NCBI GenBank assembly: GCA_052106055.1
Contig: JBQEBI010000001.1
Location: 8,019-72,018, forward strand
DNA length: 64,000 nt
From: Oceanisphaera sp.
Lineage (GTDB): Bacteria; Pseudomonadota; Gammaproteobacteria; Enterobacterales; Aeromonadaceae
Reading direction: 5' to 3'
In this document: one piece after another, positions 9,945 through 55,424 of the stretch
How positions within the stretch are numbered: the stretch's first letter is position 1
Layout: each line of letters starts with the position of its first letter
Translations under genes and position numbers: made by a program
Notes under the pieces: generated by a model
Told to the model about the DNA's origin: nothing
Seen by the model: the letters and a program-made list of their open reading frames with translations, nothing else
Databases searched by the model: none

Positions 9945-9989
9945 CCGCACAGTACTAAGTGCTTAATATCCGCTTAAAAATTAACATTC

Positions 9990-10014
9990 AGCGCCGAGCC
10001 TCAAACTCGGCGCT
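9990..10014 (+). terminator. hairpin after fadJ
   Basis: agcgccgag-cctcaaa-ctcggcgct stem-loop with a weak T tract. Confidence 0.4.
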
Positions 10015-10121
10015 GTCTTAGCACTACCAGCCGCCGGTATCCAAACCTGTATTTTTCTATAATAGAAGGCGTAGCGTGTTTAAGGTACGGCTGTCTTTTG
10101 GCGCTTATCTTTACCTCTCCC

Positions 10122-10149
10122 CTTGAAATATTTATCGCCACCCCCATCT
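10122..10149 (+). promoter_or_regulatory. sigma-32 heat-shock promoter of htpG
   Basis: CTTGAAA, 13 nt spacer, CCCCATCT. This matches the sigma-32 consensus CTTGAAA-N13-15-CCCCATnT and lies about 40 nt upstream of the htpG start. Confidence 0.75.
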
Positions 10150-10186
10150 TTTAGCTAATAGTCAAACTGAATAAAGGAACAGAGTA

Positions 10187-12103: not shown

Positions 12104-12132
12104 TTTATACTAAGCAAAGTGTTAACTAAACT

Positions 12133-12157
12133 AACCCGGCCGAGTGTCGGGTTTTTT
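12133..12157 (+). terminator. terminator after htpG
   Basis: Short aacccg..cgggtt stem followed by tttttt. Confidence 0.5.
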
Positions 12158-12251
12158 GATTTTAGCCATAATAAGTGGAACTTGTTCTTGCTGTTGCTTG
12201 TCCCCATGGCGGTGTCGTGACACAATCAGTCACAAATCATGGATATATTAA

Positions 12252-12917
<666 letters not shown>

Positions 12918-12939
12918 TCGCAGCTAATAAGCCTGTATT

Positions 12940-12968
12940 AACGAGCGTCTTAGGGCGCTCGTTTTTTT
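12940..12968. terminator. bidirectional terminator between adk and ansA
   Basis: aacgagcg..cgctcgtt stem followed by ttttttt. Confidence 0.7.
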
Positions 12969-12972
12969 GTGT

Positions 12973-13992: not shown

Positions 13993-14074
13993 TCACCTTA
14001 CCTCAATATTAAACACGTGTGCCTGTTTTATATTTGGGTGTTGACCGTGTCAGGCTTTCAGTTTTTACTTGTGT

Positions 14075-15913
14075 TTAAAAGCCCTGACAGGGAACACACA
14101 ATACATATCGACCTTGCGCATCATTAAACTGACTCAGCGCGGTGGCCTCTTGTGTTACCTGTTTGGCGGCTGGACGCAATACAGCAGGCAGCGCCGTCAT
14201 AAGACCATGAGAAAGCACATTGGAGTCTCCTATAAACTGAGCCAGTAGTTTTTCTTTAGCTGACCTCGGTAAGGTGATTTCTTTTACACTAAATTCACCT
14301 AAATTAGCTAATTCAGCGGCACCTGCTAGGGCATCATCCAAGTGACCTAACTCATCAACTAAGCCTAGCTCTTCAGCCATTTTACCGGTCCAAACATGAC
14401 CTTGAGCAACCTGCTCTACCTGTTCAGGGCTCATGTTTCGGCCTTGTGCTACCAAGGTGACAAATTGCTGATAAACATGCTCAACGCTCAGTTGGATCAT
14501 TTGTTTAGCATGATCTGGCAAACCTGTGGTAATACCGGCGCCAACAAAGTCGGTGGTGCCTACGCCATCGGTATTGAGCCCAAGCTTTTGCAATGCCTCT
14601 TCAAAGGTTAAAAATAAACCAAATACCCCAATAGAGCCGGTTAAGGTGGTCGGGGCGGCATAAATCTTATCAGCATCGGCGGCTATCCAATAACCACCAG
14701 AGGCTGCAGTGCTGCCCATTGACACGACCCAAGGTTTGCCGCTTTCTTTAAAGCGCAACAAGCTACTGCGAATTTGTTCTGCGGCAAAGGCACTGCCGCC
14801 GGGGCTGTCTATGCGCAGCACTAAAGAGTGGATATCGTCATCGCGTCGAGCTTGTTCTATTAACTGACTAACATGCTCGTCATTAATGCTATTAGGCGTT
14901 GTTGTATCGGCACTCATAATCGCACCGCTTGCAATAATTAATCCCACCTTAGGTGCATCGCTGGGTGGCGTTTGCACATGGCTTAGGTAAGTGGGAATGT
15001 TCACGCTCATATAGTGATTGGATTGATGGTTCCAACCTACTTGCTCTGCGACTGTGCTTTGCATTTGATGACGATTGGCCAGAGTATCAACTAACCCTTG
15101 CTCTAGGGCGTAGCGTGCAGGGTGACCATTAACTGCGGCAAAACGACTAAGCAGCTGCTCTTTGCTAGGGCTAATATGATCGGTGGGAATATTTCTTAAT
15201 GTGGCGACATTATCTTGGTAATGCTGCCAAAGTTGACCTAACCACAGTTGCGTATCTTGGCGGCTCTCGTTAGACATATCATTGCGCAAATAGGGTTCGA
15301 CAAAGGATTTATAGGTGCCCACTCTAAAGACATGAGGCGTAATATTAAAACGCTCAAAGGCGGCTTTATAATGTAGACGATAGACGCCCAACCCCTGCAG
15401 TGTCACGCCACCGGCTGGGTTTAATAATATATGATCTGCGTGTGCAGCTAAGTAATATTGTCCTTGGCTGTAATAATCGCCAAGGGCATAGACGGGCTTG
15501 CCCGAGCGTTTAAACTGCTCAATGGCATTACCTACTTCATCTAACTTAGTGAGGCTCGACTCACTCATATTTTGTAGTTCTAATACCAGAGCATCAATAC
15601 GCGGATCGTTGCGTGCATAGTCTAGCGCCTCTTTTATTTGACTCATGGTCATGGGTGCCGGTGTTTGACTGTCACTGAGCCATTTTTCTAATAATTGTTG
15701 TGGGTTAGCTGTCGCTTCTTGCTCCAGTAGAGGGCCTGCTATGGTGAGGGTGAGGGCTGCCTTTTCGGGGAGTGTCACAGTGTCATCTTTACCACTAAAA
15801 ATAAGCACTGAAAATGCCAAAATAGCTAATAAGAACAGCGCTGTAATCAATAGGCGAATTGCATTGAGTACTTTAGCAATACCACGAAACAAGGCTTTTA
15901 TAACAGACCACAT
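14075..15913 (-). CDS. sppA: signal peptide peptidase SppA (protease IV, 67K type)
   Basis: 612 aa. N-terminal TM segment and duplicated ClpP/crotonase-like S49 domains (SPGGSAFAAE, GSTAASGGYW). Confidence 0.9.
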   Translation of the reverse strand: MWSVIKALFRGIAKVLNAIRLLITALFLLAILAFSVLIFSGKDDTVTLPEKAALTLTIAGPLLEQEATANPQQLLEKWLSDSQTPAPMTMSQIKEALDYARNDPRIDALVLELQNMSESSLTKLDEVGNAIEQFKRSGKPVYALGDYYSQGQYYLAAHADHILLNPAGGVTLQGLGVYRLHYKAAFERFNITPHVFRVGTYKSFVEPYLRNDMSNESRQDTQLWLGQLWQHYQDNVATLRNIPTDHISPSKEQLLSRFAAVNGHPARYALEQGLVDTLANRHQMQSTVAEQVGWNHQSNHYMSVNIPTYLSHVQTPPSDAPKVGLIIASGAIMSADTTTPNSINDEHVSQLIEQARRDDDIHSLVLRIDSPGGSAFAAEQIRSSLLRFKESGKPWVVSMGSTAASGGYWIAADADKIYAAPTTLTGSIGVFGLFLTFEEALQKLGLNTDGVGTTDFVGAGITTGLPDHAKQMIQLSVEHVYQQFVTLVAQGRNMSPEQVEQVAQGHVWTGKMAEELGLVDELGHLDDALAGAAELANLGEFSVKEITLPRSAKEKLLAQFIGDSNVLSHGLMTALPAVLRPAAKQVTQEATALSQFNDAQGRYVLCVPCQGF

Positions 15914-16030
15914 AGATTTGCCTTAAACGAAATAATTATTGAAGTGCTCTATTATGACGACACTATTAGTACAATGCCAAACTAAAACGCATTTAAACGA
16001 TTGTTTGAAATTGCGATAGCGATGAACTAG

Positions 16031-18079
<2,049 letters not shown>

Positions 18080-18230
18080 ACCCTGTAGGCGAAGTTCCCC
18101 ACTGTGTTGGCTGCAAATGGAAAAACAAGCACCGACATTTAGCGTGGCGCTGAGTGCTTATGGCCGCCCGAAGGGCTTGGTGTTATGGTGTTCCCATATT
18201 TAACGTTGCCCAATAGTAAAGGTATAACAC

Positions 18231-18785
18231 ATGGATGCATTAGAACTGTTATTAAATCGTCACTCTAATCCGCGTTTGATTGAGCCGGCACCAAGTGCAG
18301 AACAGCTAGACACAGTTTTTAAAGCGGGGCTGCGTGCGCCAGATCATGGTGCATTAACCCCGTGGGAATTTGTTGTTTTTGAAGGTGAACAACGCCAACA
18401 GCTGGGCGATATTTTTGCCCAAGCAGCTCAAGCCAATGGAAAAGACGCTGAAACCATAGAAAAAGCGCGCAATGCTCCGCTGCGTGCCCCCATGGTGATT
18501 ACAGTGGTAGCTAAGGTGAAAGAGCACAACAATGTGCCGCGCTTAGAGCAAGAAATTTCTGCAGGTTGTGCGTTAATGGCCATGCAAATGGCGTCATTAG
18601 CCTTAGGTTTTAATGGTATTTGGCGTACGGGTTGGTTTTCATTTGATCGCGGTGTGCACCAGGCGCTATCGTTAGCAGAAACGGATCAAATTGTTGGGTT
18701 TTTATACCTAGGCACTGCACAAGTAGAGGTGCGTAAGCTGCCCGAGCGCGATCCTGCTCAGTTTGTACGTTATTTCGGGAAGTAA
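18231..18785 (+). CDS. NAD(P)H nitroreductase, YdjA-like
   Basis: 184-aa nitroreductase fold (LLNRHSNPRL..PDHGALTPWEF). Same neighbourhood as E. coli ydjA-sppA-ansA. Confidence 0.7.
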   Translation: MDALELLLNRHSNPRLIEPAPSAEQLDTVFKAGLRAPDHGALTPWEFVVFEGEQRQQLGDIFAQAAQANGKDAETIEKARNAPLRAPMVITVVAKVKEHNNVPRLEQEISAGCALMAMQMASLALGFNGIWRTGWFSFDRGVHQALSLAETDQIVGFLYLGTAQVEVRKLPERDPAQFVRYFGK

Positions 18786-18908
18786 TTAGCAGGCGCCCAG
18801 CGACATGAATAGACTATGTTTTGTTTCACTGGGCGTTTAGTTCTTTGCAAAGTGGAGGTTTGCCAGCCTGTTGCTTTAGAGTTGCATATAACCAGAACTG
18901 TCATGTAC

Positions 18909-19661
18909 TTATGGTTTAGTGTTATGTAGCTCTCTATCATCCCAATAGATAAATGCCCACGCGCCTAATGTGCCGAAAAATACCCCTAATACACTGCTTG
19001 CCAAAATATCGGCAGGCCAATGTAGGCCTAATAATAACCGTGAATAACACACTGCGACCGCCCACACGCTTACCCCACCAATGAGCCAAGCTGAACGTCG
19101 ACGATAGAGTAATAACAAACAATAAAAGCTGGCGATAGTCATAGCAGCAATAGAGTGACCCGAAGGAAAAGAATAACTCACTTCATCTTGCCAATGATGC
19201 TTTAGCCAATTAGGAACTTGTTGATCTGACATATCTTTAACGCCATTTTCTACCCAGCGTTCTCGTATTAATGGCAGTTGCGCATAAAAATGAGCACTGT
19301 CAGTTAATCGTCCTTTTTCAGCTAACCAAAGCACATAAGGGCGAGGCTCTTTAAAATATTCTTTAGCAATGCTTTTAGTTACAAACGCACTGCCAAGCGC
19401 TCCCATTAAACAAAAGAAAAATACCACCCATTGCCCCGATCGACGACGCCATCGAAGTAAGGCTAATAAACTTAATGATACTAAAGTTAAGGCAATGCCT
19501 AATTTGCTAATCGTTAAAGTAAGGCCATAAGCCAATAAGGCAGGGACTTCATCTAAATCAAGCAGCGGAAACCAATGCCATTGCCACTGGTAGCCTAAAC
19601 TGGCTATGGTGACAGGAAAAACCAGTAACACGAATACAGTAAATAAGAGTCGAAAGGTCAT
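18909..19661 (-). CDS. PAP2-family phosphatase (PgpB-like)
   Basis: Membrane protein carrying the three PAP2 motifs KEPRPY, PSGHS and SRLLLGLHWPAD. Confidence 0.7.
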   Translation of the reverse strand: MTFRLLFTVFVLLVFPVTIASLGYQWQWHWFPLLDLDEVPALLAYGLTLTISKLGIALTLVSLSLLALLRWRRRSGQWVVFFFCLMGALGSAFVTKSIAKEYFKEPRPYVLWLAEKGRLTDSAHFYAQLPLIRERWVENGVKDMSDQQVPNWLKHHWQDEVSYSFPSGHSIAAMTIASFYCLLLLYRRRSAWLIGGVSVWAVAVCYSRLLLGLHWPADILASSVLGVFFGTLGAWAFIYWDDRELHNTKP

Positions 19662-19892
19662 GAGTTGTTAGGCCAAAAAAGAATGTAATTAAGCAAAATA
19701 ATAGAAGCGGGCGCGATTGTAGCAAAGCAGGCGGTGAATGATAGCTGAAGCGTGTCGTTGCAAAGGGTATAGTAATCAACAGACTGATTATTTAATGCAA
19801 AGGCTACCGTCAATTTGCCCTGACACAAAAAAACGGAGTGTGCTTTTATATAGGGTGAACTGTGTATAATAAGGCCTAATTAGGGAGTATTC

Positions 19893-21008
19893 ATGAAGTT
19901 GTTAGCCGATGAAAATATGCCTTATGTGCAAGCGCTATTTGGTGATTGGGCAGAGGTCACCACCTTTGCTGGGAGAAACATAACACCAGAGCAATTGCGA
20001 GAGGTAGAAGTGTTGTTAGTGCGCTCTATTACTCAAGTTAACGCGGCATTACTGGCGCAAGCACCGCATTTGCGTTTTGTTGGTACCGCAACCATTGGCT
20101 GTGATCACATTGATACCGAATTATTAGCAGAGCGCAATATTGCTTTTGCCAGCGCCCCTGGCTGCAATAAAGTTGCGGTAGGTGACTATGTATTAGCCGC
20201 CTTATTGGCCGTTGCAGAGCATAAGCATTGGCAGCTAAAAGGTCGCACTATTGCCGTGGTTGGGGTGGGTAATACCGGCTCACAAGTGGTGGCGCGTGCT
20301 CACGCACTGGGCATGAAAGTGTTATTGTGCGACCCAATTAAAGCGCAACAGAGCCCGAGTGATTTTGTTGAGTTATCACAGGCTTTAACTGCAGATATTA
20401 TTAGTTTTCATGTGCCCATCACTCATGACGGTGCGTACCCAACGTGGCACTTATTAGATGAAAGCGCCATTAATACGCTGCACGGTGATCAGGTTTTGAT
20501 TAATGCCTGTCGTGGTGAAGTATGGGACAACCAAGCTTTATTACACCGTCAACAAACCGAGAATCCGGTTACCTTAGTCATGGACGTGTGGGAGCATGAA
20601 CCTGAGGTGTTATTGCCATTAGTTGCCCATACGCTGTTGGCCACCCCACATATTGCCGGCTATAGCCTAGAGGGTAAGGCGCGGGGGACATTTGCGCTCT
20701 ATCAGGCAGTAAAAGCACACAAGGGCCAAGCTGTGATGAACGATGTGGAGCAGTTGTTACCCATACCGGCGATAACAGGCCTCACCTTAGCTGGCGAGTG
20801 TGACCAAGCTTTACTCACGCGTTTAGTGCGCTTAGTGTACGACATTAAAGCTGACGATTGGGCCTTTCGTGCAAAGCTTGGGCAGCCCGGTTTTTTTGAC
20901 CAGTTACGCAAACAATATCCCCAGCGGCGAGAATTAGGGTCATTAGCAGTGGAAAGCTCTCACATAGACGTGCAAAATACGCTGTATGCGCTGGGCTTTA
21001 AAGTTTAA
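19893..21008 (+). CDS. pdxB: erythronate-4-phosphate dehydrogenase PdxB
   Basis: MKLLADENMPYV start, GVGNTG NAD site, 371 aa. Confidence 0.9.
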   Translation: MKLLADENMPYVQALFGDWAEVTTFAGRNITPEQLREVEVLLVRSITQVNAALLAQAPHLRFVGTATIGCDHIDTELLAERNIAFASAPGCNKVAVGDYVLAALLAVAEHKHWQLKGRTIAVVGVGNTGSQVVARAHALGMKVLLCDPIKAQQSPSDFVELSQALTADIISFHVPITHDGAYPTWHLLDESAINTLHGDQVLINACRGEVWDNQALLHRQQTENPVTLVMDVWEHEPEVLLPLVAHTLLATPHIAGYSLEGKARGTFALYQAVKAHKGQAVMNDVEQLLPIPAITGLTLAGECDQALLTRLVRLVYDIKADDWAFRAKLGQPGFFDQLRKQYPQRRELGSLAVESSHIDVQNTLYALGFKV

Positions 21009-35775: not shown

Positions 35776-35863
35776 GGTGAGGTGGCCGAGTGGCTGAAGG
35801 CGCACGCCTGGAAAGCGTGTATACGGAAACGTATCGAGGGTTCGAATCCCTCCCTCACCGCCA
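35776..35863 (+). tRNA. tRNA-Ser (anticodon GGA)
   Basis: GGTGAGG acceptor stem, anticodon loop CTGGAAA, long variable arm, GGTTCGAATCC T-loop and encoded CCA. Near-identical in layout to E. coli serW/serX. Confidence 0.97.
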
Positions 35864-35870
35864 AATTCTT

Positions 35871-35916
35871 AAAGCGGAAAGTTTTGTATAACAAAACTTT
35901 CCGCTTTATTTTTTTC
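35871..35916 (+). terminator. rho-independent terminator of tRNA-Ser
   Basis: aaagcggaaagttttgt-ata-acaaaactttccgcttt followed by a T run. Confidence 0.85.
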
Positions 35917-36353
35917 TCTGCACACTACACACGTATTGCCTTTCCTCTTTATCCGCTAAAAAATATTTCTTGCCGGAATCCGACTCTCAATGCGTTAGCG
36001 CATTGAAATCGTTTGCTGATTTCTGATAGATGCAATCTATAAATACCTCATTTATAACACTGTCATTACGCGTTGATGTGTTTTGATGCTTGTTATCAAC
36101 CAAGATCAAAATTTTTAATTAGATGATTCGTGGTTAAGCAATCTTCCCACAAGGTCATAATCTCAATTATTCGACATCGAAACAGCCAAATGGGTCATTT
36201 ACTTATTATTTGATACCTGTTTACTTATGCGACATGTGTATATAACCAGTATTTACCTGTAGTGAGTGGCGATATATTGTGCCAGTGGTAATAAGTAATC
36301 AACCAAGCCGTTTATGTTGCTCTTTCTATTAAATACATATTAAGTAGGTTTCA

Positions 36354-37631
36354 ATGGCCGCACCTAAAAGTCTCACTTTTCAGTTACATCAACATTGGGA
36401 GGTGGTTGAGCAGTTAACTCGGCTCTCGCGAGAGTTTCCAGTATTTGAGCTGAGAGTACTTGAGCAGGTAATCAATCAGTACAAAAATAAGAATGCGGAA
36501 AGTAATACTGTACTCACCAGTCTTATTAATGCAGACATACTCCAGTCTATTAATCGCAGTAGCGACTATCAGCTAAACACCTTAGTTGTGGACTTTGTCA
36601 GAGGTTTAACCCAAGAGCATGAGTTAGGTCTATCAGCGGTGCTTAAAGCGCGAGTTGATGCGATTAAAGACGCCACTAGCCAAGTATTAGAAGGACTCGA
36701 TGGGTCGTACAATGATTTACTTAGTACTGGTGCGAACAGACTGTCAGAGCTGGTTAGAAAAATAATTCAACAGTTGACACAAGATAAACAAGCCATCTTT
36801 GAAATAGCCGAATTGGCAAAATCGGCGGATACCCGTGTTCCGATTGCACGTCGTTACCGTGAAGTGTTAGAGGTGTACGATCAATACGTTGAGCCGATGA
36901 ACGAAATGATGGATAGTGGTCTTGGCGGCAGTTTCTACCCTTTATTAGAGACGGCGGAAGCCGCACTCGATTCTGCCGTTGATACTCTTTCCATACGCGG
37001 CTCTTTGTATCAACAAAGGTTGGCAATGCGCCAGATAGCGTATCAAGTCAAAGATCTTCGGTACCAAGGGCGAATTATAGCTCAGCAATGTGCCGATACC
37101 TTGTTGCCGTTAAGAGAGGAAGTCAGGCAGCATAACCAGCTTTCAGCGGTGATCAGCAAGCAGCTTAGTTTAGTGCGTAAAAAGGGCTTAGTGCGAGGGC
37201 TGAATGCGAACGGTTTACCAATGTGGAAAAGTAGCCGTGTTACCAAAACTCAATTAGGTAACGAGGTGCGTGAGTTGATGGCAGAATTTATGGACTTTGA
37301 GCCTAGCTCTATTCCATTCCCAGATGAAGAGGGAATGCCAGAAAGTTCAATCATCAACTGGGTTGATGAAGAGCTTTTACGACAGCAACTAATTGACGTA
37401 TTACCAGTAGAGAATCTCATGGCATGGCTCAGGGGAAACTATCAGCACCTACCGGATGCCGAGCTGTTGCGCCTGTATCACGCGCTTGCCCGTGATCCTC
37501 AGTGGCAAAGCACATTAGGGATGCATTCACATACCACAGCACTGAACACAGTCGCCGTAACCTACCACCCTCATGAAATAAAGATGTTGACTAGCTCAAC
37601 AAATGCAAAGGATGTTGATAATGCAAACTAG
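36354..37631 (+). CDS. gene 1 of operon: helical protein, JetA/MksF (kleisin)-like by position only
   Basis: 425-aa ORF, predicted largely helical. The 3' end overlaps the next gene by 11 nt. I could not recognise DUF3375 motifs by eye. Confidence 0.4.
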   Translation: MAAPKSLTFQLHQHWEVVEQLTRLSREFPVFELRVLEQVINQYKNKNAESNTVLTSLINADILQSINRSSDYQLNTLVVDFVRGLTQEHELGLSAVLKARVDAIKDATSQVLEGLDGSYNDLLSTGANRLSELVRKIIQQLTQDKQAIFEIAELAKSADTRVPIARRYREVLEVYDQYVEPMNEMMDSGLGGSFYPLLETAEAALDSAVDTLSIRGSLYQQRLAMRQIAYQVKDLRYQGRIIAQQCADTLLPLREEVRQHNQLSAVISKQLSLVRKKGLVRGLNANGLPMWKSSRVTKTQLGNEVRELMAEFMDFEPSSIPFPDEEGMPESSIINWVDEELLRQQLIDVLPVENLMAWLRGNYQHLPDAELLRLYHALARDPQWQSTLGMHSHTTALNTVAVTYHPHEIKMLTSSTNAKDVDNAN

Positions 37632-38190
37632 CAAAATCAATTTAAATGAGCTGGCTCATTTGAAAGAGTTGTTTAACCTTTTTATTTCTGGGCGACATCT
37701 TAATCGCTCGGCAGATGCGGCTTTATGGCATGAGCTAGAACAACAAGCACAGCAGTATCAGCACCTATTTGCTAGTTTAGGGTTTGACTTGCGTATGGAT
37801 GGGCGTGGTTTTGCTTGGTTCCACGAGGATGATAGTAACTCGAATATCAATAAGCAATCACGCCAGCTAGCGCTGTTGCTGATGGTGATATTTGACCATC
37901 AAGCAGATAACGGCCGTGCTCTTGGCCAGTTCTACCAATGGATTATTGATAATGCCTTATTAAATGAGGTCTACGAAAAGCATCAAGAGCTTTTGGATGC
38001 AGAAGAGCTCGATCAATATGCACTCATAAAGATACTCGACAATGCAGTGCGAAAAGGTTTTGCAGTTCAAGAGAGCAATCACTGGCGTTTATTGTCTTCG
38101 GTATATCGCTACCTTGACCATTTTGAATTTATTACTGAACAGCAATCTAATAGCGATGTGGCAGCTTATGAGGAAGGTGATTCATGTTAA
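37621..38190 (+). CDS. gene 2: small acidic protein, JetB/MksE (DUF4194/MukE-like) candidate
   Basis: 189 aa from ATG 37621 (AAGGA RBS 8 nt upstream; the ORF track start 37603 is less likely). The segment ALWHELEQQAQQYQHLFASLGFDLRMDGRGFAWF fits the remembered DUF4194 pattern (lW..L....v..yf..lGl.L..de..GyAfl). Confidence 0.55.
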   Translation: MQTSKINLNELAHLKELFNLFISGRHLNRSADAALWHELEQQAQQYQHLFASLGFDLRMDGRGFAWFHEDDSNSNINKQSRQLALLLMVIFDHQADNGRALGQFYQWIIDNALLNEVYEKHQELLDAEELDQYALIKILDNAVRKGFAVQESNHWRLLSSVYRYLDHFEFITEQQSNSDVAAYEEGDSC

Positions 38191-40976
38191 ATTACGGCTT
38201 TCAACGTTTAGCGTTAATTGGCAGTGCTGGGTACCAGCGAGCAGAACTTCCTCTTGATGACTCTGTGTCATTAATTGCGCCCAATAACTATGGTAAAACA
38301 AGCTTAATCAATGCGCTTCAATTTCTGCTCATCATTGATCAAAGAAGGATGGATTTCGGTTCTCACACATTAGAAAAGGCTCGTCGTTTTTACTTTCCGA
38401 ACAACAGCGCTTACATCTTGCTAGAAGTCATCTTACCGCAAACTGGCACTGTGGTGTTTGGCTGTGTGGGTAAAGGGGTAGGCTTTGACTACGAGTACTT
38501 TGCTTACAAGGGTGAGTTGAATCTAGATGATTTCCGCTTAGCTGATGGAAACATCGTTTCGCAACCAAAGTTAGTCAACCACTTAGCGACCAAAAAACAT
38601 CGGGTCTATAAGTTCAATGATAAAGAGTTTCGACACTCGATTTATGGCGGTGCAAAAAGCAAGAAAAACAGCGACATCGACTTTACAGTATTCAAACTTG
38701 AACACATAAGCGATGCTCGCTCGTTTCAGCAAGTCCTCACCAAGACGCTAAGGCTTGACAAGCTAAACTCCAGTGATGTTAAAGACTATTTGTTGAAGAT
38801 CTTTAGTCGAGAGCTCCCCAATGCCGCTATAGATTTTAAGCAGGAGTGGGAGAAAGCCTTTCAAGATATCAACCTAGAGCGTGAGCAATACCTGGCAGCA
38901 GCCAATAATTTAGATACGATTCAAGAACTTGAACTAAATTTTGAGGGTACCTTGTCGCTACGAGGAAAAATTGCTGCATGCCAACCTAAAGTGAATGAGT
39001 TGCTGCAAAATTGGCATGGTCACGTTCAAACGATGACTGAAAATCTATCAACGCAAAAGGCGAAGCTTGAGCAAACACAAAGTGAGTTACGAAACCAAGA
39101 CATCATACGCGCAGGAGAACGCACTGAATTAACCAATAAACTTGCAGAGTTAAAACGTACCGAGAAACAGCAACAAGAGTTAGAAGATCGGTTTACTCTG
39201 ATCCCAGACCAACTGTTTCTAGAGAACCAGCTAAATTTAGCCGAGAAAGCGTATGAAGCTCAGGCTGCCTTGTGTGTTCAATCGCAACGTTCATCTTCTG
39301 CCTCGATTAGCAAGCAGTTGCAACAACGAAAAGAGCATTTACAAAGGCTGCAGTCTCAATATGACACTCTCGGCGACAATTTATACCTTCATCTTTCCAA
39401 GTCGCTTAGTGCACATGAGCTAGAGAAGCTGAATAAAGTACTTAGCCAGCAAGTGATGCAATTGCCACAGTCGCAGTATTCGCTTGACCTTAATCAGCTT
39501 CGAAAGTTGCTTAATGATGAATCTGCTGAGCAATTTTCGCTCTCAGGCTTAACGCTGTCTTTTGAGGAGCTTGTACCTCAGCATATTCAAAAGACAGAGC
39601 AGGAGTTGGTGGAGGAAATAGGCGATGTGAGTAAGCAAATAAAAGAGCTTACGGATTTGTTTGAAGCAAGTAGAGAGAGTGAGGCTGCTGAGAGGAAAAA
39701 AATCGAATTAAACCGTGCGCTAAGGCAGTGTGAGCAAGAACTGCAGGATTACCAACATCTTCAAGCATTAATAAAAACTCAGGCGCAGCGACTTGAGCAA
39801 AAGCAAACATTAGCGAGTGAGCGAGAGGCGGTCGAAGCTGCTCTGGATAATACGGGCAAGCAGTACAATGAGCTCACGCTGCAAATTAATACAGTGAGAG
39901 ATAAGCTCAGTAACTTGGCTTCGGATAAACGCAATGTTGAAAAACTAAAAAATCAAAGAATTGATGACCAAGCGCTGTTTGCTGCATTGTCTGACCAACC
40001 CCATACACCTTGGATTGTAATGGATGAGTGGTCTTTGGAGTCTCTACCGGCTCGTCTTGAACAATACATCGAGGATTGCAAAGACCTCGATAAGCTGTCT
40101 AAAGAAGTGCGTCAGATGAAAAATGACTTAGCTCAGAAGGGGCTGACAAAGTTCCAAATGGCGCAAACTCAAGATGAAGAGATAAAAGGTATCATTCAAT
40201 TCAGTCATTGTTTAGATGATGAGAAGAAAGCCTTGGAAAGGCGTGCTCGATCGGCAGTGGTCAACGTTACAGCGAGTTTAAGAGAGCTGCGCGGTGGGCT
40301 CTATGCCCTACAAAGCAAGATGAAAGAGTTCAATCGATTAATCAGTCATAGACAGTTATCGGATCTCAAAATCTTCAAAATTGAACCCGTTGAAGAGAGT
40401 CAGCTTGTAGATTCCATGAATGTACTGATACAGCAAGCAGAGCAAACTGAAAGTGGTCAGAGTTTCGAACTGTTTGATCAAGGCAGTATTCTTGATGATG
40501 CGGAGTTAGAGCGAGCGAAGAGCTTGCTGATAGAAGAAGGTAATGCTCGCCAAGGATTAAGAGTGGCAGATTTGTTCAGACTTGAGTTTGTTGTCGCGAA
40601 ACAAGGGCAGCAGCAAGAATCATTTGAAGATATTGATAGTGCGGCTTCTAACGGAACCGTATTGATGGCCAAGCTTGTGACTGGTCTGGCAATGTTGCAC
40701 CTAATGCAAGATAAGCGTCACCAAATGAAAGCGGTATGTTATTTAGATGAGGCCTTAGCTCTAGATACCAAAAACCAAGTTAACTTGATAGAAATTGCCG
40801 AACAATTCGGTTTTGCCTTGATCTTTGCTTCACCAGCACCGTTAACCACAGCGCGTTATTGTGTGCCAATCCATCAAGCGAATGGCTATAATCACATTAG
40901 CCGTAATAGTTGGCAAATTTTCGAACCGATAGAGAATCAAGAGCTGCCGCAACAACAAGTGGGGTCCTTGCGATGA
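38184..40976 (+). CDS. gene 3: SMC-like coiled-coil ABC ATPase, JetC/MksB-like
   Basis: 930 aa. N-terminal P-loop APNNYGKTS (aa 32-40), about 600 aa of Q/E/K/L-rich coiled-coil-type sequence, and C-terminal Walker B VCYLDEA (D855-E856) preceded by a possible degenerate signature SNGT. Start overlaps the gene 2 stop by 7 nt. Confidence 0.75.
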   Translation: MLNYGFQRLALIGSAGYQRAELPLDDSVSLIAPNNYGKTSLINALQFLLIIDQRRMDFGSHTLEKARRFYFPNNSAYILLEVILPQTGTVVFGCVGKGVGFDYEYFAYKGELNLDDFRLADGNIVSQPKLVNHLATKKHRVYKFNDKEFRHSIYGGAKSKKNSDIDFTVFKLEHISDARSFQQVLTKTLRLDKLNSSDVKDYLLKIFSRELPNAAIDFKQEWEKAFQDINLEREQYLAAANNLDTIQELELNFEGTLSLRGKIAACQPKVNELLQNWHGHVQTMTENLSTQKAKLEQTQSELRNQDIIRAGERTELTNKLAELKRTEKQQQELEDRFTLIPDQLFLENQLNLAEKAYEAQAALCVQSQRSSSASISKQLQQRKEHLQRLQSQYDTLGDNLYLHLSKSLSAHELEKLNKVLSQQVMQLPQSQYSLDLNQLRKLLNDESAEQFSLSGLTLSFEELVPQHIQKTEQELVEEIGDVSKQIKELTDLFEASRESEAAERKKIELNRALRQCEQELQDYQHLQALIKTQAQRLEQKQTLASEREAVEAALDNTGKQYNELTLQINTVRDKLSNLASDKRNVEKLKNQRIDDQALFAALSDQPHTPWIVMDEWSLESLPARLEQYIEDCKDLDKLSKEVRQMKNDLAQKGLTKFQMAQTQDEEIKGIIQFSHCLDDEKKALERRARSAVVNVTASLRELRGGLYALQSKMKEFNRLISHRQLSDLKIFKIEPVEESQLVDSMNVLIQQAEQTESGQSFELFDQGSILDDAELERAKSLLIEEGNARQGLRVADLFRLEFVVAKQGQQQESFEDIDSAASNGTVLMAKLVTGLAMLHLMQDKRHQMKAVCYLDEALALDTKNQVNLIEIAEQFGFALIFASPAPLTTARYCVPIHQANGYNHISRNSWQIFEPIENQELPQQQVGSLR

Positions 40977-41851
40977 GCCAGACATTGGTTAAAGTATTAA
41001 CGCGATTGGTCGAGGCTTACCCAGATCCCATCGCCGGAAGCACCTTGACATCACCTCAGAAGAATCAGCTTGAAGCATTCAGTCGCAATACTCAGTCGGT
41101 ACAAGTTACCCCTAAAGGCCGTGGAGTTGTCTACGGCATTTTAGATATGGATGTTGTTAAAGTCACACTAGAACAGTTGGTACCAAACCAACACTTGTCT
41201 AAAGCTGTGCCACCACGAGCATTAAATATAGGCGCGACACGTAGCAGCAAACAAGGGCGAGCAGGCCACGATGTCACCTACGTGCTGGCTAAAACGGTTG
41301 CGAATCCGTTGTGGGAGGCGTCTGGAGTACTCACTGATCACTTAAATGTAGCAACAGAAGAGTTTGGCGTTTTTTCGCTTGAAATCGGTGGCGAAAGAAA
41401 CAGCAATCTTCACACTCATCATTCCATTTGGTTGGTGGAAAACCAAGCAGTGTTTGATCGGCTAGATTGGCTACACAATAGCGAACCCACAACCGTCATC
41501 TGGTACCGAGGGCAGCTGCACAACAAACTGATTGAGTGGTTATCGGCGCCCGAAAGAGCACCGTCGGTATACTTATTTGCGGATTATGATGGTGTAGGCT
41601 TGAATAATTATCGTCGCTTAAAAGACAAATTAGAAAAAAGAGCAGAGTTTTGGATGATGCCTAACTGGAAAGAACTTTTGAACCGTTATGGGCAAAACCA
41701 ACTTTGGAATGATACTGCACGGGAATTCAAATCTTTTGAGCGAAACAGCCAAAAATTGTTAGCGCAATCCCCTATACTGCGAGAGCTGATAACGGAAATG
41801 AAGAAGTATGGCTTAGCTTTAGAGCAAGAGGCTATCTGGTTGAGTGATTGA
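40973..41851 (+). CDS. gene 4: Toprim-domain protein, JetD/MksG-like putative nuclease
   Basis: 292 aa from ATG 40973 (ATGA overlap with the gene 3 stop). Toprim-like acidic residues WLVENQAVF (E156) and LFADYDGVGLNNYRRL (D204, D206). The terminal LALEQEAIW resembles the end of the DUF2220/JetD C-terminal domain. Confidence 0.7.
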   Translation: MSQTLVKVLTRLVEAYPDPIAGSTLTSPQKNQLEAFSRNTQSVQVTPKGRGVVYGILDMDVVKVTLEQLVPNQHLSKAVPPRALNIGATRSSKQGRAGHDVTYVLAKTVANPLWEASGVLTDHLNVATEEFGVFSLEIGGERNSNLHTHHSIWLVENQAVFDRLDWLHNSEPTTVIWYRGQLHNKLIEWLSAPERAPSVYLFADYDGVGLNNYRRLKDKLEKRAEFWMMPNWKELLNRYGQNQLWNDTAREFKSFERNSQKLLAQSPILRELITEMKKYGLALEQEAIWLSD

Positions 41852-41926
41852 TCGGTGACACTCTCAATGGACCAAGATATTTAGCAGACAAAGCTAAGCC
41901 AGTAGCTGTACTTGTCGTCACTCTAT

Positions 41927-42607
41927 TTATTCAGCCGGGTATAAATACCCGCGCAATAAGCGGATAAACTCGCTGGTCTCTCGGTCTAAAGACGACTCAT
42001 GTATTAATAGATCGTAACCATATAACTCTCTCATATGACACATACGATGACCGAGCATCGCAATGGCGTCTGAGTAACGGTGGCCGTTTGCTGAACAAAA
42101 ATGATCATCCTCTATCAGCCAGTCATGAAACTGATGTCGTTCAATCACACCATAACGCCTTGCTAAGGCTAACAGTGGCCGCTGCTCGGTTAAAATGTGT
42201 ACTGCTAAGCGGGGCGTCATAAACGAAAGAATTTCATCAATATCACGAATTTTAATGCCCACATAAGGCAGATCAACCTGATCTATGCCGCGGGTTAAAT
42301 TGGGCTGTCCAATGCGAAATATATTGCGCCAATGCAGGCTCCAGCCCCCAATTTTGTGATGAAAGTGCAAATGTTCGCGACTGAGCGAGAAACTATAATG
42401 CGGTTCATGTAGTTTAAGCGCACCTAATATCGCCATTATCATGCAGGCTAAAAATAAAAACACCACGACTAGCTGGGCACGACCGTCTAACCAATACCCA
42501 ATGACCAGTATCAGTGGCATTAGTACTAAGCCTGCCAGCATAAGTGCTAAACCGTTATGACGCGACATGGGGGCTATGTGTTGAGTTTCTTGCACAGTGT
42601 CTCCCAT
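41927..42607 (-). CDS. membrane protein of unknown function (possibly DUF2982-like)
   Basis: Two N-terminal TM helices followed by a soluble domain. Family assignment from memory is weak. Confidence 0.4.
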   Translation of the reverse strand: MGDTVQETQHIAPMSRHNGLALMLAGLVLMPLILVIGYWLDGRAQLVVVFLFLACMIMAILGALKLHEPHYSFSLSREHLHFHHKIGGWSLHWRNIFRIGQPNLTRGIDQVDLPYVGIKIRDIDEILSFMTPRLAVHILTEQRPLLALARRYGVIERHQFHDWLIEDDHFCSANGHRYSDAIAMLGHRMCHMRELYGYDLLIHESSLDRETSEFIRLLRGYLYPAE

Positions 42608-43400: not shown

Positions 43401-43470
43401 CCCTAGTCTGCAGCGGTACGCTTTACGCTGACCGCTGTATGTAAAAACCAGCAGCTACTTCTTCTTTAAC

Positions 43471-43763
43471 TGACAGGCTGATGGCCTGTCACTTAGTCAC
43501 AAGTCCGTAAGCGGTTGAACAAATGCAAAGAGGCAATAGGATTGCCTCTTCTTTGTGTTTGGGTGTCTTCTGTTGGTAGTGACAGACAACTCGGGGCTAA
43601 TGGGAAGGCAGAGGGTGTCTGCTCCGTCGACCCTCCGCGCCATGGAGGGCGCGGCGGAGCCCCCATGGAGGGGTTTACGGCGAGTCGAGCGGAGTAGCGC
43701 GCTCTGCCTGATTTCTACTCAAACATCAACAAAAAGATGTGATGAAATGACAGGCTGACGGCT
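43471..43763. repeat. GC-rich structured intergenic element bounded by two copies of a TGACAGGCTGAYGGC hairpin motif
   Basis: tgacaggctgatggcctgtca at 43471 and tgacaggctgacggc...ctgtca at 43749. Between them are a terminator-like hairpin (aagaggcaa..ttgcctctt) and a GC-rich core with direct ccatggaggg repeats enclosed by ggcagag..ctctgcc. Confidence 0.5.
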
Positions 43764-43788
43764 TAAAGCTGACAGCTGTCATTTAGCC

Positions 43789-44775
43789 TTAAAACCAAGT
43801 GGTGGCCAGTTGGGTAACCAGAAAGCCGGTGCCCATTAAATGTAAAAATAATATCGCACCCAGTGCCATGGGTTTCCACCCCACCGACTTTAACTCACTT
43901 AAATGGGTGCTTAGCCCCAAAGCGGCCATTGCCATAGTAAGCGCCCAGCTATCTAAATACTTAATGGTGTCTACCCATGCCGTTGGCAGGGAAACGACTG
44001 AATTAATCACCACCACCAAAATAAAACCATACGCAAACCAAGGTTGAGGTGCCCGCACGGCTCCAGCGTCACTGCTACGGCTGAGCCAATGACCTAATAA
44101 TACTAAAACTGGGGCTAGCATCATGACCCGCGTTAACTTGGTGATCACCGCCGTTTGTGCCACATCCGATCCCATGGCTTCGCCGGCTGCGACCACTTGT
44201 GCCACTTCATGTATGGTAGCACCGGTATAAATACCCATGGCGGCTTTGGTCATTCCCAATAAGGGGTATAAAAGCGGGTATATAAACATGGCAAGGGTGC
44301 CAAAAATAACCACAGTGCCCACCGCAACTGTAGTTTGCTGTGGCTTTGCCCGCACTACAGGCTCAGTGGCCAGTACTGCGGCGGCACCACAAATAGCAGA
44401 GCCTGCGCCGACTAATAAGCTGGTGGGGGTGTCTAAGCCTAACCAGCGCTTACCCAACACATAGCCTAGCCCTAGCGTAGAAGCGAGCATAATGACATCC
44501 ACCACCAGTGCGCCGGCACCTACGCTTGCAATATGCTGCACTGTAATGTGAATACCATAAAAAGCGACGCCTAACCGCAGTAGCCTTTTCTTACAAAAAT
44601 CCAGACCGGGTTGCCAGCTGCCATGGGCAAGTTTAGGGATCACGTTGCCCACTACTAAGCCGAGCACAATCGCATAGATAAGCGGACTTATACTGGAGTC
44701 CAGCACTTTAGCCAGCATAATACTGGTGGCAGACAAGGCTACAGCCAGCCCCAAGCCTTTTAACAGTTTAAGCAT
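43789..44775 (-). CDS. YeiH/UPF0324-family membrane protein (putative sulfate exporter family)
   Basis: Polytopic membrane protein, 328 aa from ATG 44775 (AAGGA RBS). N-terminus MLKLLKGLGLAVALSATSIMLAK. Confidence 0.6.
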   Translation of the reverse strand: MLKLLKGLGLAVALSATSIMLAKVLDSSISPLIYAIVLGLVVGNVIPKLAHGSWQPGLDFCKKRLLRLGVAFYGIHITVQHIASVGAGALVVDVIMLASTLGLGYVLGKRWLGLDTPTSLLVGAGSAICGAAAVLATEPVVRAKPQQTTVAVGTVVIFGTLAMFIYPLLYPLLGMTKAAMGIYTGATIHEVAQVVAAGEAMGSDVAQTAVITKLTRVMMLAPVLVLLGHWLSRSSDAGAVRAPQPWFAYGFILVVVINSVVSLPTAWVDTIKYLDSWALTMAMAALGLSTHLSELKSVGWKPMALGAILFLHLMGTGFLVTQLATTWF

Positions 44776-44984
44776 AACGATATTCCTTATTGCAATATGC
44801 AGGCAGTGTATGACGTATAACAAATTAATTAAAATTGAACTTTTTGAGTTTGTTTATCAATTTTACTGATGAAGGAGGGGGGAGCCGTTAACAGAGCGTG
44901 GGGCGTTATGGTAATCTGATGGTGTTAACAGGCTACTGCATAGGTTTTTATACCTAGTTATTTCTGTACTTGGTGGTCTATTTT

Positions 44985-55309: not shown

Positions 55310-55424
55310 GGTGGCCCCGTTGGTCCTCCCGCATCGGAATCTTGTTTACCAGGTCAGGCCCGGAAGGGAGCAGCCAGAGCAGGAATCTTCGAGTGCCGGG
55401 ATGTGGCTGGCGGTGGCCACCTCC
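55310..55424 (+). ncRNA. ffs: 4.5S RNA / bacterial small SRP RNA
   Basis: ggtggccccgttggtcctcccgc...tgtttaccaggtcaggcccggaagggagcagcc...gtgccgggatgtggctggcggtggccacc is colinear with E. coli 4.5S RNA, including the conserved domain IV GGTCAGG.CCGGAAGG.AGCAGCC. The ends pair into one long helix. Confidence 0.93.

Follow-up and report, generated by a model that had tools for sequence, protein, structure and literature searches.

Four short, tightly packed genes in the genome of Oceanisphaera sp. raise the question of whether they encode a defence against foreign DNA or a condensin acting on the host's own chromosome. They lie within a 64,000-nucleotide stretch of contig JBQEBI010000001.1 (assembly GCA_052106055.1), the whole of which was analysed and is referred to below as the window. 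A first-pass annotation, made from the sequence alone, had proposed a unit of an SMC-like ATPase and a Toprim protein of the Wadjet/MksBEFG kind, and HMM matches together with the gene order support this core call. Judging from homology and genomic context, we consider it probable that the operon, whose SMC complex is of the MksBEF lineage, is a Wadjet-like defence against foreign DNA, and that it most likely destroys incoming plasmids.

Organization and integrity of the operon

All four genes are located on the forward strand, at positions 36354..37631 (gene 1, 425 aa), 37621..38190 (gene 2, 189 aa), 38184..40976 (gene 3, 930 aa) and 40973..41851 (gene 4, 292 aa). The ORFs of genes 2 and 4 also have longer versions, starting at 37603 and 40910, respectively. 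Successive genes overlap by 11, 7 and 4 nt, the junction of genes 3 and 4 being ATGA, and ribosome-binding sites of the AGGA/GAGGAAGG type are found at the junctions. The arrangement of overlapping, same-strand genes noticed earlier is thus borne out by the ORFs, by the junction sequences and by public gene calls, which in two loci of identical DNA (L083 and L084) give proteins of 425, 189, 930 and 292 aa with identical overlaps. At least two more Oceanisphaera assemblies contain the identical locus, and more than 90 loci have highly significant homologues of all four genes, arranged in the same order.

The dN/dS values calculated against the Vibrio copy are 0.08, 0.13, 0.10 and 0.14 for genes 1 to 4, respectively. 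All four genes are therefore maintained under purifying selection, while the adjacent brxR gene has decayed (see below).

Genes 1-3 and the MksBEF lineage

Gene 1, in which the first-pass annotation recognised no motif, encodes a kleisin (MksF in the literature, labelled 'MksB' in NCBIfam and Pfam). It is matched over its full length by NCBIfam NF040857 (E = 5.5e-37, 127.5 bits; residues 1-386 against a 412-position model), the identical protein of L083 and L084 is annotated with Pfam PF28010, and the gene comes first in the unit at all loci examined. The Pfam search gave no match better than E = 0.02, DUF3375 included, PADLOC gave none at E ≤ 1, and hhalign revealed no similarity between the gene 1 family and E. 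coli MukF. The AF2 model, built without an alignment, had a pLDDT of 43.6 and was for this reason unusable.

The product of gene 2 is a MukE-like KITE protein, MksE. It matches Pfam PF21980 (MksE; E = 1.1e-35, 123.9 bits, cut-off 27 bits) and the 232-position NCBIfam Mks model (E = 1.5e-23, 83.6 bits); its family profile retrieves MukE chains from the PDB at E = 3.5e-5, and an hhalign comparison with E. coli MukE scores 96% (E = 3e-9). Its central segment had been said to fit the DUF4194/MukE pattern. The assignment to the MukE/MksE-type KITE proteins stands, but DUF4194 itself remains below threshold (E = 0.0018, 18.5 bits, cut-off 32.7 bits), and the match to PADLOC JetB1 (E = 1.9e-4) spans only ~55 residues.

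Gene 3 encodes an SMC-type ATPase (MksB in the literature, 'MksF' in NCBIfam and Pfam) matched by NCBIfam NF040859 (E = 1.1e-105, 354.5 bits; residues 3-905 against a 926-position model), and Pfam PF28007 is recorded on the identical protein of L083 and L084. The SMC/Rad50 layout suggested previously is confirmed by a Walker A motif (A32-PNNYGK38TS-40) and a Walker B motif (V851-CYLD855E856A-857), which are accompanied by a signature-like S822-x-G824-T825 and by D861; K38, D855 and E856 are invariant across 68 superfamily members. The central part of the protein, searched as a family profile against the PDB, gave coiled-coil and Rad50-hook-type matches only. PADLOC JetC1 matched just the N-terminal P-loop segment (residues 17-64, E = 0.002), the DUF3584-type PADLOC JetC models being about 1100-1470 positions long, and none of ten other members of this ~900-aa SMC superfamily had a full-length JetC match among the PADLOC models.

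Single-sequence phmmer searches of the PDB with all four proteins returned nothing at E ≤ 1, and the family profiles of genes 1, 3 and 4 gave coiled-coil noise or nothing, with no JetA, JetC or JetD chain. The PADLOC v2 Wadjet models, compared as individual HMMs, did not place the locus in types I-III, and genes 1-3 fall into Mks families. As the locus lies outside the PADLOC Wadjet types I-III, the earlier idea of a distinct subtype holds. What does not hold is that its proteins are of anomalous size. Type I Wadjet proteins have roughly 480, 240, 1100 and 400 aa, and the four proteins are indeed shorter than this, but they are normal for the MksBEF lineage, whose models have 412, 232 and 926 positions. 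By sequence, genes 1-3 are much closer to chromosome-organising MksBEF than to any characterised Wadjet.

The gene 4 nuclease

Gene 4 encodes a short MksG/JetD-like nuclease composed of a winged helix-turn-helix and a Toprim domain. It is matched above the Pfam cut-offs by DUF7281 (E = 1.5e-10) and JetD_C (E = 3.5e-8, 33.4 bits, cut-off 22 bits), and JetD_C/DUF7281 is the sole nuclease family that it matches. PADLOC JetD1 (E = 8e-9) is aligned at model positions 266-406 of 409, that is, with its C-terminal part only, and the Pfam search gave no DUF3322 match. The Toprim-type acidic motifs and the LEQE end that had been read from the sequence are present as L154-VE156NQAVF, F202-AD204YD206GVG and L283-E284QE286 (numbering of the 292-aa protein), as is every other motif quoted earlier for genes 3 and 4. 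None of the residues E156, D204, D206, E284 and E286 varies among 38 homologues, which go down to 35% identity.

An AF2 model of this protein (pLDDT 87.6) likewise has a winged helix, formed by the N-terminal ~75 residues, followed by Toprim. In Foldseek its best match was the topoisomerase VI A subunit 1d3y_B (E = 6e-5, 208 aligned columns, 19% identity, TM-score 0.43), and later matches included the Toprim domains of gyrase and topo IV and ArsR/SmtB winged helices. No JetD or MksG entry was found among the top 50 matches, therefore a direct structural similarity to JetD is not demonstrated by the model.

Acquisition of the operon and decay of brxR

The operon is part of a 6,098-bp insertion (35868..41965), comprising a brxR stub, a regulatory region and the four genes, which starts directly after the 3' end of a tRNA-Ser(GGA) gene (35776..35863, forward strand; ARAGORN, Rfam tRNA). 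In Oceanisphaera pacifica (L098), where the gene order is RNase T - tRNA-Ser - DUF2982 - NfsA, the same site holds 214 bp and the operon is absent; synteny reaches window position 35867, and blastn places the breakpoints at 35867 and 41966. The GC content is about 0.43 inside the insertion versus 0.46-0.49 in its flanks. Although the host belongs to the Aeromonadaceae, the operon is 82.6% identical at the nucleotide level, over 5.8 kb, to a Vibrio parahaemolyticus island. The comparison indicates that the operon is accessory and was horizontally acquired. When the flanks of the insertion were searched for direct repeats that could be att sites, only short, chance-level repeats emerged, and within the window there is neither an integrase nor any other defence gene near the operon, whose immediate neighbours are housekeeping genes.

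On the reverse strand, at 36072..36206, lies a 135-bp remnant of the 5' part of brxR, which encodes a WYL-family defence-island regulator. It corresponds to residues 1-48 of V. parahaemolyticus BrxR (tblastn; 60% identity, E = 2e-10), has lost its start codon (ATG to ATA) and contains several in-frame stops. Because of this decay, expression of the Oceanisphaera operon is probably constitutive or otherwise rewired. The region between brxR and gene 1 (36207..36353) is the presumed promoter/operator. Its first ~90 nt are conserved in the loci from Shewanella and Vibrio, and contain the motif ACCTGT twice (36215-36220 and 36255-36260); a simple scan found no strong sigma-70 consensus.

Distribution and genomic context of related operons

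The four-gene unit recurs in Vibrionaceae, Shewanella, Citrobacter, Marinobacterium, Methylohalobius, Parabeggiatoa, Polaromonas, Ralstonia and Salinibacter, with the order and the overlapping junctions kept, and is present in V. cholerae, V. vulnificus, V. parahaemolyticus, Aeromonas, Citrobacter and Leclercia. The identities of genes 1-4 to those of the window are 57/52/55/42% in Marinobacterium, 28/31/29/30% on a Neptuniibacter plasmid and 27/29/29/29% in Parabeggiatoa, so that the four genes form a conserved, co-diverging unit across deep lineages. No copy was found in 5,426 complete E. coli genomes (megablast, and distant blastn with the Citrobacter copy).

The relatives are strain-variable and often situated inside defence or integrative islands. 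A divergent BrxR/WYL gene lies upstream of the unit in V. cholerae, V. parahaemolyticus, Shewanella pealeana, Citrobacter koseri and Neptuniibacter, and it is intact in L085-L092. According to the literature, BrxR co-localises with defence systems, Wadjet included, and BrxR/WYL regulators respond to DNA damage or ssDNA. Neighbouring genes encode a type I R-M system with SIR2, a type III-like methylase/helicase and a protein with the Shedu SduA_C domain, as well as DUF262, integrases, AlpA and RadC. In V. cholerae (L085) the unit has the nan-nag cluster on one side and a type I R-M system on the other, a slot that in 7PET strains holds the anti-plasmid DdmDE module (PMC11411939).

Five plasmids carry a gene 4 homologue adjoining an SMC gene; all five are typed as non-mobilizable, and four of them, with sizes from 156 kb to 2.3 Mb, are large. 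An upper size limit of roughly 100 kb is reported for type I Wadjet, with which these four sizes are compatible. A 76-kb Salinibacter plasmid, which also bears the system, does not fit a simple rule that everything below 100 kb is cut.

Proposed function

By analogy with type I JetABCD/MksBEFG, the proteins of genes 1, 2 and 3 would form an ATP-driven DNA-loading or loop-extruding complex, and gene 4 would act as a dimeric, metal-dependent endonuclease of the winged-helix and Toprim type. The SMC motor would scan DNA and, on small closed-circular plasmids, stall or extrude them fully; this state would license the nuclease to cut, and the large chromosome would be spared. That the subunits assemble, extrude loops, act specifically on circular DNA and activate the nuclease is in each case inferred from the type I system. 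In most relatives the operon would be controlled by the divergent BrxR/WYL repressor.

The target might instead be phage. As has been proposed for Lamassu, an SMC-like complex could recognise structures in phage DNA or intermediates of replication; DNA would then be degraded indiscriminately by the Toprim nuclease, in an abortive infection. The relatives do lie among anti-phage systems under BrxR/WYL regulators, Toprim nucleases also work in Gabija, PARIS and OLD, and gene 3 has a weak match to PADLOC LmuB (E = 9e-6, residues 413-721). This match covers coiled-coil segments only, however, and the combination of a kleisin, a KITE protein and a long-armed SMC is a hallmark of loop extruders and no feature of Lamassu. 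Moreover, JetD_C/DUF7281 is the only nuclease family matched, and there is no homologue in 50,697 phage records. We thus regard a primarily anti-phage role as unlikely. Lamassu/DdmABC itself was rejected as an identity because a kleisin and a KITE protein are present; LmuB has about 650 aa in the literature. A plain ABC/AAA_21 toxin-antitoxin ATPase was likewise rejected, its Pfam matches being sub-threshold.

A chromosome-organising condensin like the MksBEF of P. aeruginosa, with gene 4 as an accessory topology or DNA-processing subunit (e.g. one resolving entanglements), would suit the housekeeping neighbours of the operon, the full-length homology of genes 1-3 to the NCBIfam Mks condensin models and to three-gene loci in housekeeping neighbourhoods, and the topoisomerase subunit found as the best structural match of gene 4. 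We give it little credence. The operon is missing from the O. pacifica site and about 83% identical to a Vibrio island, and its relatives are strain-variable, placed in integrative/defence islands with BrxR control and also plasmid-borne. Gene 4 is accompanied by neither an ATPase nor a transducer and shows no evident means of religation, and the clades without it are precisely those that seem to have been inherited vertically.

That the operon is a silent or decaying remnant which ceased to be expressed or functional after losing its regulator and island context is very improbable, as the brxR stub, the lack of an integrase or companion defence genes in the window and the lack of a strong promoter consensus are set against four intact ORFs with every invariant catalytic residue, dN/dS values of 0.08-0.14, a retained promoter/operator segment and the identical locus in the further Oceanisphaera assemblies.

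Relationship to nuclease-less MksBEF loci and evolutionary implications

The window proteins match all 80 MksBEF-family loci that were fetched, and the identity of genes 1-3 to MksBEF is about 28-34%. Their scores (127.5, 83.6 and 354.5 bits) are far under the NCBIfam equivalog cut-offs for NF040857/8/9 (750, 400 and 1900 bits), all three of which are exceeded by a Pseudomonadaceae MAG locus, L004 (846, 433 and 1965 bits). Related loci with three genes only number 79 (Pseudoalteromonas, Rheinheimera and the Pseudomonadaceae MAG) and have conserved housekeeping surroundings, 63 of them sharing two upstream genes. In a neighbour-joining distance tree, midpoint-rooted, without support values and used for grouping only and not for rooting, nuclease-bearing members are found in several deep branches of the family. 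The nuclease-bearing Parabeggiatoa locus L003 groups with L004, a bona fide MksBEF, to which its SMC protein has the highest identity (45%) among the loci compared. The clades apparently inherited vertically coincide with those lacking gene 4, and this opposition of nuclease-less housekeeping loci and mobile nuclease loci is the contrast expected of a domesticated condensin versus a defence module.

A further proposal has, in our judgement, an even chance of being correct: the locus would be a fourth, untyped class of Wadjet ('Mks-type'), the common ancestor of the entire ~900-aa Mks SMC superfamily would already have had its short DUF7281 nuclease of winged helix and Toprim, and the chromosomal MksBEF of Pseudomonadaceae, Pseudoalteromonas and Rheinheimera would be fixed descendants that lost the nuclease. 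If true, this would show directly, from genomes, the route that has been proposed from a defence system to a domesticated condensin, and coupling would be mechanistically different in such a class since gene 4 lacks the arm of type I JetD. As the operon shares its lineage with nuclease-less MksBEF, it bears on the origin of that condensin. An earlier study held MksBEF and MksBEFG to be without sequence similarity and probably without a common ancestor; the present family supplies the missing intermediate, in which subunits of the MksBEF lineage remain coupled to a nuclease of the JetD type. Our literature search found no paper with DUF7281 or a fourth Wadjet type; Petrushenko et al. may already list operons with a short MksG as 'MksBEFG'.

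The domestication hypothesis can now be tested on natural pairs, from which the nuclease is taken away or to which it is supplied, and a smaller SMC-nuclease complex is on offer for structural work. The system has no match to the individual PADLOC v2 Wadjet HMMs, and in Vibrio, Aeromonas, Citrobacter and Leclercia it could limit the uptake of plasmids and resistance genes. These hosts are clinically and ecologically important.

Comparison with known systems

MukBEF is, like the complex described here, a KITE-based bacterial SMC complex, and gene 2 is detectably homologous to MukE. Gene 1 has no detectable similarity to MukF, however, gene 3 matched no MukB chain in the PDB and has 930 aa versus ~1,486 codons of mukB (976326-980786 in K-12), and the locus in the window does not belong to the core genome and includes a nuclease. 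The link to MukBEF therefore appears to be a superfamily relationship only.

With the Topo VI-A/Spo11 fold, gene 4 shares the winged-helix and Toprim layout and the conserved metal-binding residues (E and DxD). Unlike Topo VI, gene 4 has neither a B subunit nor an ATPase as partner, nor a demonstrated catalytic tyrosine, and hydrolytic nuclease activity, as in JetD/MksG, is expected of it.

MksBEF of P. aeruginosa is described as an operon of three genes, none of them for a nuclease, with a stable place on the chromosome. The families, sizes and order of genes 1-3 are the same, with full-length profile matches. The difference is the fourth, nuclease gene of the window locus, which is accessory, transferred and has BrxR-linked relatives, whereas L004 and the Pseudoalteromonas and Rheinheimera loci have no fourth gene and retain conserved housekeeping synteny.

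Wadjet (JetABCD, also MksBEFG or EptABCD) comprises types I-III, known from E. coli GF4-3, P. aeruginosa PA14, Corynebacterium glutamicum, Mycobacterium smegmatis and Neobacillus vireti. No solved Jet chain is reachable from the window proteins by sequence profile. Genes 1 and 3 differ from types I-III in having no match to the JetA (DUF3375) and JetC models, gene 2 is marginal to JetB (DUF4194), and gene 4, unlike JetD, has a small winged helix in place of the DUF3322 arm/aCAP region. Type I JetD docks on JetB through its DUF3322/arm part, so the coupling of SMC complex and nuclease would differ from type I. On the other hand, the order kleisin - KITE - SMC ATPase - Toprim nuclease in a coupled, co-inherited operon is that of Wadjet, the JetD_C-type nuclease has the same acidic catalytic set, relatives of the window locus are found in defence islands and linked to BrxR, and the same action on circular foreign DNA is to be expected.

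Organization of the operon and identity of its products

The operon consists of four + strand genes: gene 1 (36354-37631, 425 aa), gene 2 (37621-38190, 189 aa), gene 3 (38184-40976, 930 aa) and gene 4 (40973-41851, 292 aa). Taken together, our analyses suggest that it is best read as a Wadjet-like system. The overlaps of 11, 7 and 4 nt reported in the first-pass annotation were found again in the junction sequences, which also carry purine-rich ribosome-binding sites, and public gene calls for two other assemblies with identical DNA give the same four products with the same overlaps.

The first-pass annotation had described gene 2 as fitting the DUF4194/MukE pattern. The MukE half of this description holds: gene 2 matched Pfam MksE (PF21980; E 1.1e-35), its family profile matched MukE chains in the PDB at 3.5e-5, and hhalign related it to E. 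coli MukE with 96% probability over 153 columns. For DUF4194 (JetB family) the score of 18.5 bits is below the cut-off of 32.7. Judged by its sequence, gene 2 encodes a KITE subunit.

Genes 1 and 3 gave no significant match in the local Pfam copy. Each was matched end to end by an NCBIfam Mks condensin model, i.e. gene 1 by the kleisin-sized NF040857 (412 positions, 5.5e-37) and gene 3 by the SMC-sized NF040859 (926 positions, 1.1e-105), with scores far under the equivalog cut-offs. Proteins identical to genes 1 and 3 are recorded with the newer Pfam families PF28010 and PF28007. The ATPase motifs of gene 3, namely Walker A K38, a signature-like S822-x-G-T825, Walker B D855-E856 and D861, are invariant in 68/68 superfamily members. 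The motifs quoted earlier for gene 3 (A32-PNNYGK38TS and V851-CYLD855-E856-A) and gene 4 (L154-VE156NQAVF, F202-AD204YD206GVG and L283-E284-Q-E286) are all present, and their residues are invariant in divergent homologues. The first-pass observation is confirmed, far beyond chance.

The names of the NCBIfam (NF040857/NF040859) and Pfam (PF28010/PF28007) families call the kleisin-sized first gene 'MksB' and the SMC ATPase 'MksF'. The naming in the papers is the opposite, with MksF for the kleisin, MksB for the SMC protein and mksFEBG for the operon. In the terms of the literature the window genes are mksF-mksE-mksB-mksG(-like), and the swapped database names are a trap for automated annotation.

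The nuclease

MksG was reportedly first noted, in some Mks operons, by Petrushenko and colleagues in 2011. Gene 4 passes the Pfam models DUF7281 (41.4 bits) and JetD_C (33.4 bits, cut-off 22) in its C-terminal half, and it matches the C-terminal third of the PADLOC JetD models at 8e-9. An AlphaFold2 model, built with a 38-sequence alignment, is confident (pLDDT 87.6) and comprises a winged helix of ~75 residues, a linker and a Toprim domain. Its best PDB match in Foldseek was topoisomerase VI subunit A (1d3y_B, E 6e-5), followed by gyrase/topo IV Toprim domains and ArsR/SmtB winged helices.

The invariant residues include the Toprim glutamate E156, the DxD pair D204/D206 and the C-terminal E284-x-E286. 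Among the most conserved stretches is the inter-domain linker 82-99 (window about 41216-41269), of which residues 82-98 were poorly modelled by AlphaFold (pLDDT <50). This stretch may serve for docking or for contact with DNA, and its invariant R82, N85, K93 and H99 are candidates for the docking contact.

Distribution and co-inheritance of the four genes

Homologues of gene 4, 290-305 aa in length, occur in abundance in Vibrionaceae (V. cholerae, V. vulnificus and V. parahaemolyticus among them), Shewanella, Plesiomonas, Aeromonas, Citrobacter koseri, Leclercia, Methylophaga, Saccharospirillum and others. NCBI names these homologues 'DUF7281 domain-containing' or 'Wadjet JetD domain-containing' protein. 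Those of gene 3 (about 920-930 aa) have the same spread and are nearly all annotated as hypothetical. When 1.84 billion cluster representatives were scanned exhaustively with HMMER, only 521 related clusters were found; among the 150 listed, those of full length measure about 900-950 aa and can be aligned over their entire length, the shorter ones being fragments. Phage records and 5,426 complete genomes of E. coli contained no homologue.

The order of the four genes is identical, and their junctions overlap, in every context of the clade that was inspected (Marinobacterium, Methylohalobius, V. cholerae, V. parahaemolyticus, Shewanella pealeana and C. koseri). The unit, with its order and overlapping junctions kept, is also carried by plasmids of Polaromonas (190 kb) and Neptuniibacter (172 kb), by the Ralstonia solanacearum megaplasmid and by pSR76 of Salinibacter ruber, which belongs to another phylum. 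The unannotated Halioglobus record (156 kb) yielded matches to just the SMC and gene 4, and they are adjacent. The SMC protein of the Neptuniibacter plasmid has just 28% identity to that of the window. On this plasmid (pLMG25378) a fifth gene of 156 aa (locus positions 8674-9144), with no Pfam hit, overlaps the end of the nuclease gene.

Identities of genes 1 to 4 to their window counterparts are 28/31/29/30% in Neptuniibacter and 27/29/29/29% in Candidatus Parabeggiatoa, and in every lineage the divergence of gene 4 parallels that of genes 1-3. The four genes therefore co-diverged as a unit and the nuclease is no recent add-on. That the operon encodes a true condensin with an accessory nuclease is less well supported than its reading as a Wadjet-like system.

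Relation to the nuclease-less MksBEF

MksBEF-like loci were sought in one genome per species, using as the query an alignment of the representatives nearest the NCBIfam equivalog. The scan yielded 80 loci, mostly of Pseudoalteromonas and Rheinheimera, with others of Litoribrevibacter, Gallaecimonas, a Pseudomonadaceae MAG and Candidatus Parabeggiatoa. Homologues of genes 1-3 are present, in order, in all of them (phmmer E-values against the window proteins of about 1e-35 to 1e-44 for gene 1, 1e-14 to 1e-26 for gene 2 and 1e-97 to 1e-128 for gene 3). A DUF7281 gene is located at most 8 kb away in a single locus, that of Parabeggiatoa, directly 3' of the SMC gene (E 2e-41), and is cut by the contig end.

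The locus of the Pseudomonadaceae MAG exceeds all three NCBIfam equivalog cut-offs (846/433/1965 bits) and is a genuine MksBEF such as reviews describe for P. aeruginosa; downstream of it there is a convergent gene with MlaD repeats, followed by more convergent ORFs, and no nuclease. The Parabeggiatoa SMC protein is 45% identical to the one from this MAG, the highest value among the loci compared, and 29% identical to that of the window, and the two loci cluster in a quick NJ tree.

In 63 of the 79 three-gene loci, across genera, the same housekeeping genes lie upstream, encoding an aspartokinase-like protein (AA_kinase+ACT) and a CitMHS transporter (e.g. 3041-6062 in locus L049), which indicates long-term vertical inheritance. 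Thus, the three-gene condensin-like loci appear to be vertically fixed. Nuclease-bearing units are present in several deep branches. According to a published hypothesis, MksBEF arose by nuclease loss from a Wadjet-like system; the published opposing view is that MksBEF and the four-gene Mks systems are unrelated. The distribution is as the nuclease-loss hypothesis predicts and speaks against the two being unrelated. As the tree is unrooted in practice, the direction (nuclease loss versus gain) is one that we infer. The main interest of the locus lies in the concrete genomic support and the experimental handles it offers for the hypothesis of defence-to-condensin domestication.

Genomic context in relatives

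A divergent BrxR/WYL regulator gene is located upstream of the operon in V. cholerae, V. parahaemolyticus, S. pealeana, C. koseri and the Neptuniibacter plasmid, and BrxR-family regulators have been documented to co-localise with defence systems, Wadjet included. Other neighbours in relatives are type I R-M systems with SIR2, methylase/helicase modules, a Shedu-type SduA_C gene, DUF262, integrases, AlpA, RadC and CbeA. In one V. cholerae genome (GCA_031839435.1, locus positions 6166-20793) BrxR and the four-gene unit are flanked by the nan-nag sialic-acid cluster on one side and, on the other, by a type I R-M system in which DUF1016 and SIR2 genes are embedded. In seventh-pandemic (7PET) strains that nan-nag/R-M position in VPI-2 is filled by the anti-plasmid module DdmDE (PMC11411939). 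The context in relatives argues for a role in defence. Within such a role, a phage-triggered abortive system is less well supported than a Wadjet-like one.

Acquisition of the locus in Oceanisphaera

The host is a member of Oceanisphaera (Aeromonadaceae). At 90% the flanking NfsA clusters together with proteins of O. pacifica and of Oceanisphaera MAGs. The locus is identical in two further NCBI assemblies, in which NfsA has the size of the Oceanisphaera MAG members of this cluster. In O. pacifica the flanks are those of the window (ModF-like ABC ATPase, ChrR cupin, RNase T and tRNA-Ser on one side, DUF2982 and NfsA on the other), and the gap from tRNA-Ser to DUF2982 is only 214 bp, versus 6,098 bp in the window (35868-41965). 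Directly 3' of tRNA-Ser(GGA), a perfect 18-bp stem-loop followed by a T-run (35870-35908) looks like the tRNA terminator; its sequence is not that of the O. pacifica terminator at this position, and hence it lies inside the inserted segment.

Positions 36072-41847 are 82.6% identical in DNA to a V. parahaemolyticus island segment (82-91% for the proteins), and GC is about 0.43 within the insertion versus 0.46-0.49 outside. On its left side the homologous segment ends within brxR, which is intact in relatives, where it is divergent upstream of the operon, and is here a pseudogene stub on the - strand (36072-36206) with ~48 codons left, its start changed from ATG to ATA and several in-frame stops. 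The brxR-mks intergenic region (36207-36353) contains a non-coding block conserved with Vibrio and Shewanella loci (36207-36300), with ACCTGT repeated at 36215-36220 and 36255-36260. This block is possibly the operator/promoter for BrxR; a simple scan detected no strong sigma-70 consensus.

All four structural genes are under purifying selection (dN/dS 0.08-0.14 versus the Vibrio copy). No att-like repeats were found around the insertion, and no integrase in the window. The empty site, the identity to the Vibrio island, the low GC, the decay of brxR and the purifying selection together show that the locus is a horizontally acquired accessory module that has been maintained while its regulator was lost. 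A silent remnant is the less well supported reading here, and a Wadjet-like system the better one.

A second synteny break relative to O. pacifica was observed just downstream (window 43417-44150 versus 10328-10543 of the O. pacifica locus). A full-length 344-aa PF03601 membrane protein is encoded at 43789-44823 (-), for which O. pacifica has only a 71-aa fragment call. The window also carries a 4.5S small SRP RNA gene at 55318-55415 (+) (Rfam RF00169, 73.7 bits).

Proposed function and comparison with catalogued Wadjet types

As a Wadjet-like system, the operon would supply an SMC-kleisin-KITE motor that loads onto DNA and, on small circular molecules, licenses a dimeric Toprim nuclease to cut. 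Past protein identity, residue conservation, co-inheritance and context, all that is said of the function of the unit we infer. Among five plasmids with a gene 4 homologue beside an SMC gene, four are at least 156 kb, the exception being the 76-kb Salinibacter plasmid. An upper limit of ~100 kb is reported for type I Wadjet. On pSR76, which is below that limit, the four-gene Mks+DUF7281 unit lies beside a DUF262 gene, and its presence there raises the question of how self-targeting is avoided.

Among the PADLOC models, JetA had no match in the window operon, JetB matched marginally (1.9e-4 over about 55 residues) and the JetC match was confined to the P-loop (0.002); ten further members of the ~900-aa SMC superfamily behaved in the same way. 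Searches of the PDB with single sequences and family profiles reached no solved JetA, JetC or JetD chain, and no JetD entry was among the best 50 Foldseek matches listed for the gene 4 model. The suspicion of a distinct subtype, raised in the first-pass annotation, is thereby borne out, and by these comparisons the operon appears to be none of the catalogued Wadjet types. The 'miniature' protein sizes noted at the same time are just what is usual for the MksBEF lineage.

The lineage is represented in databases by DUF or hypothetical entries only and is unmentioned in the searchable literature, a prior listing being possible, e.g. in Petrushenko et al. 2011. SMC plus Toprim anti-plasmid systems are, as a kind, already known. 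In contrast to JetD, gene 4 is devoid of the DUF3322 part, and since this arm domain is missing the nuclease must dock differently. The combination of MksBEF-type subunits with a short DUF7281 nuclease constitutes a lineage outside the Wadjet models of PADLOC.
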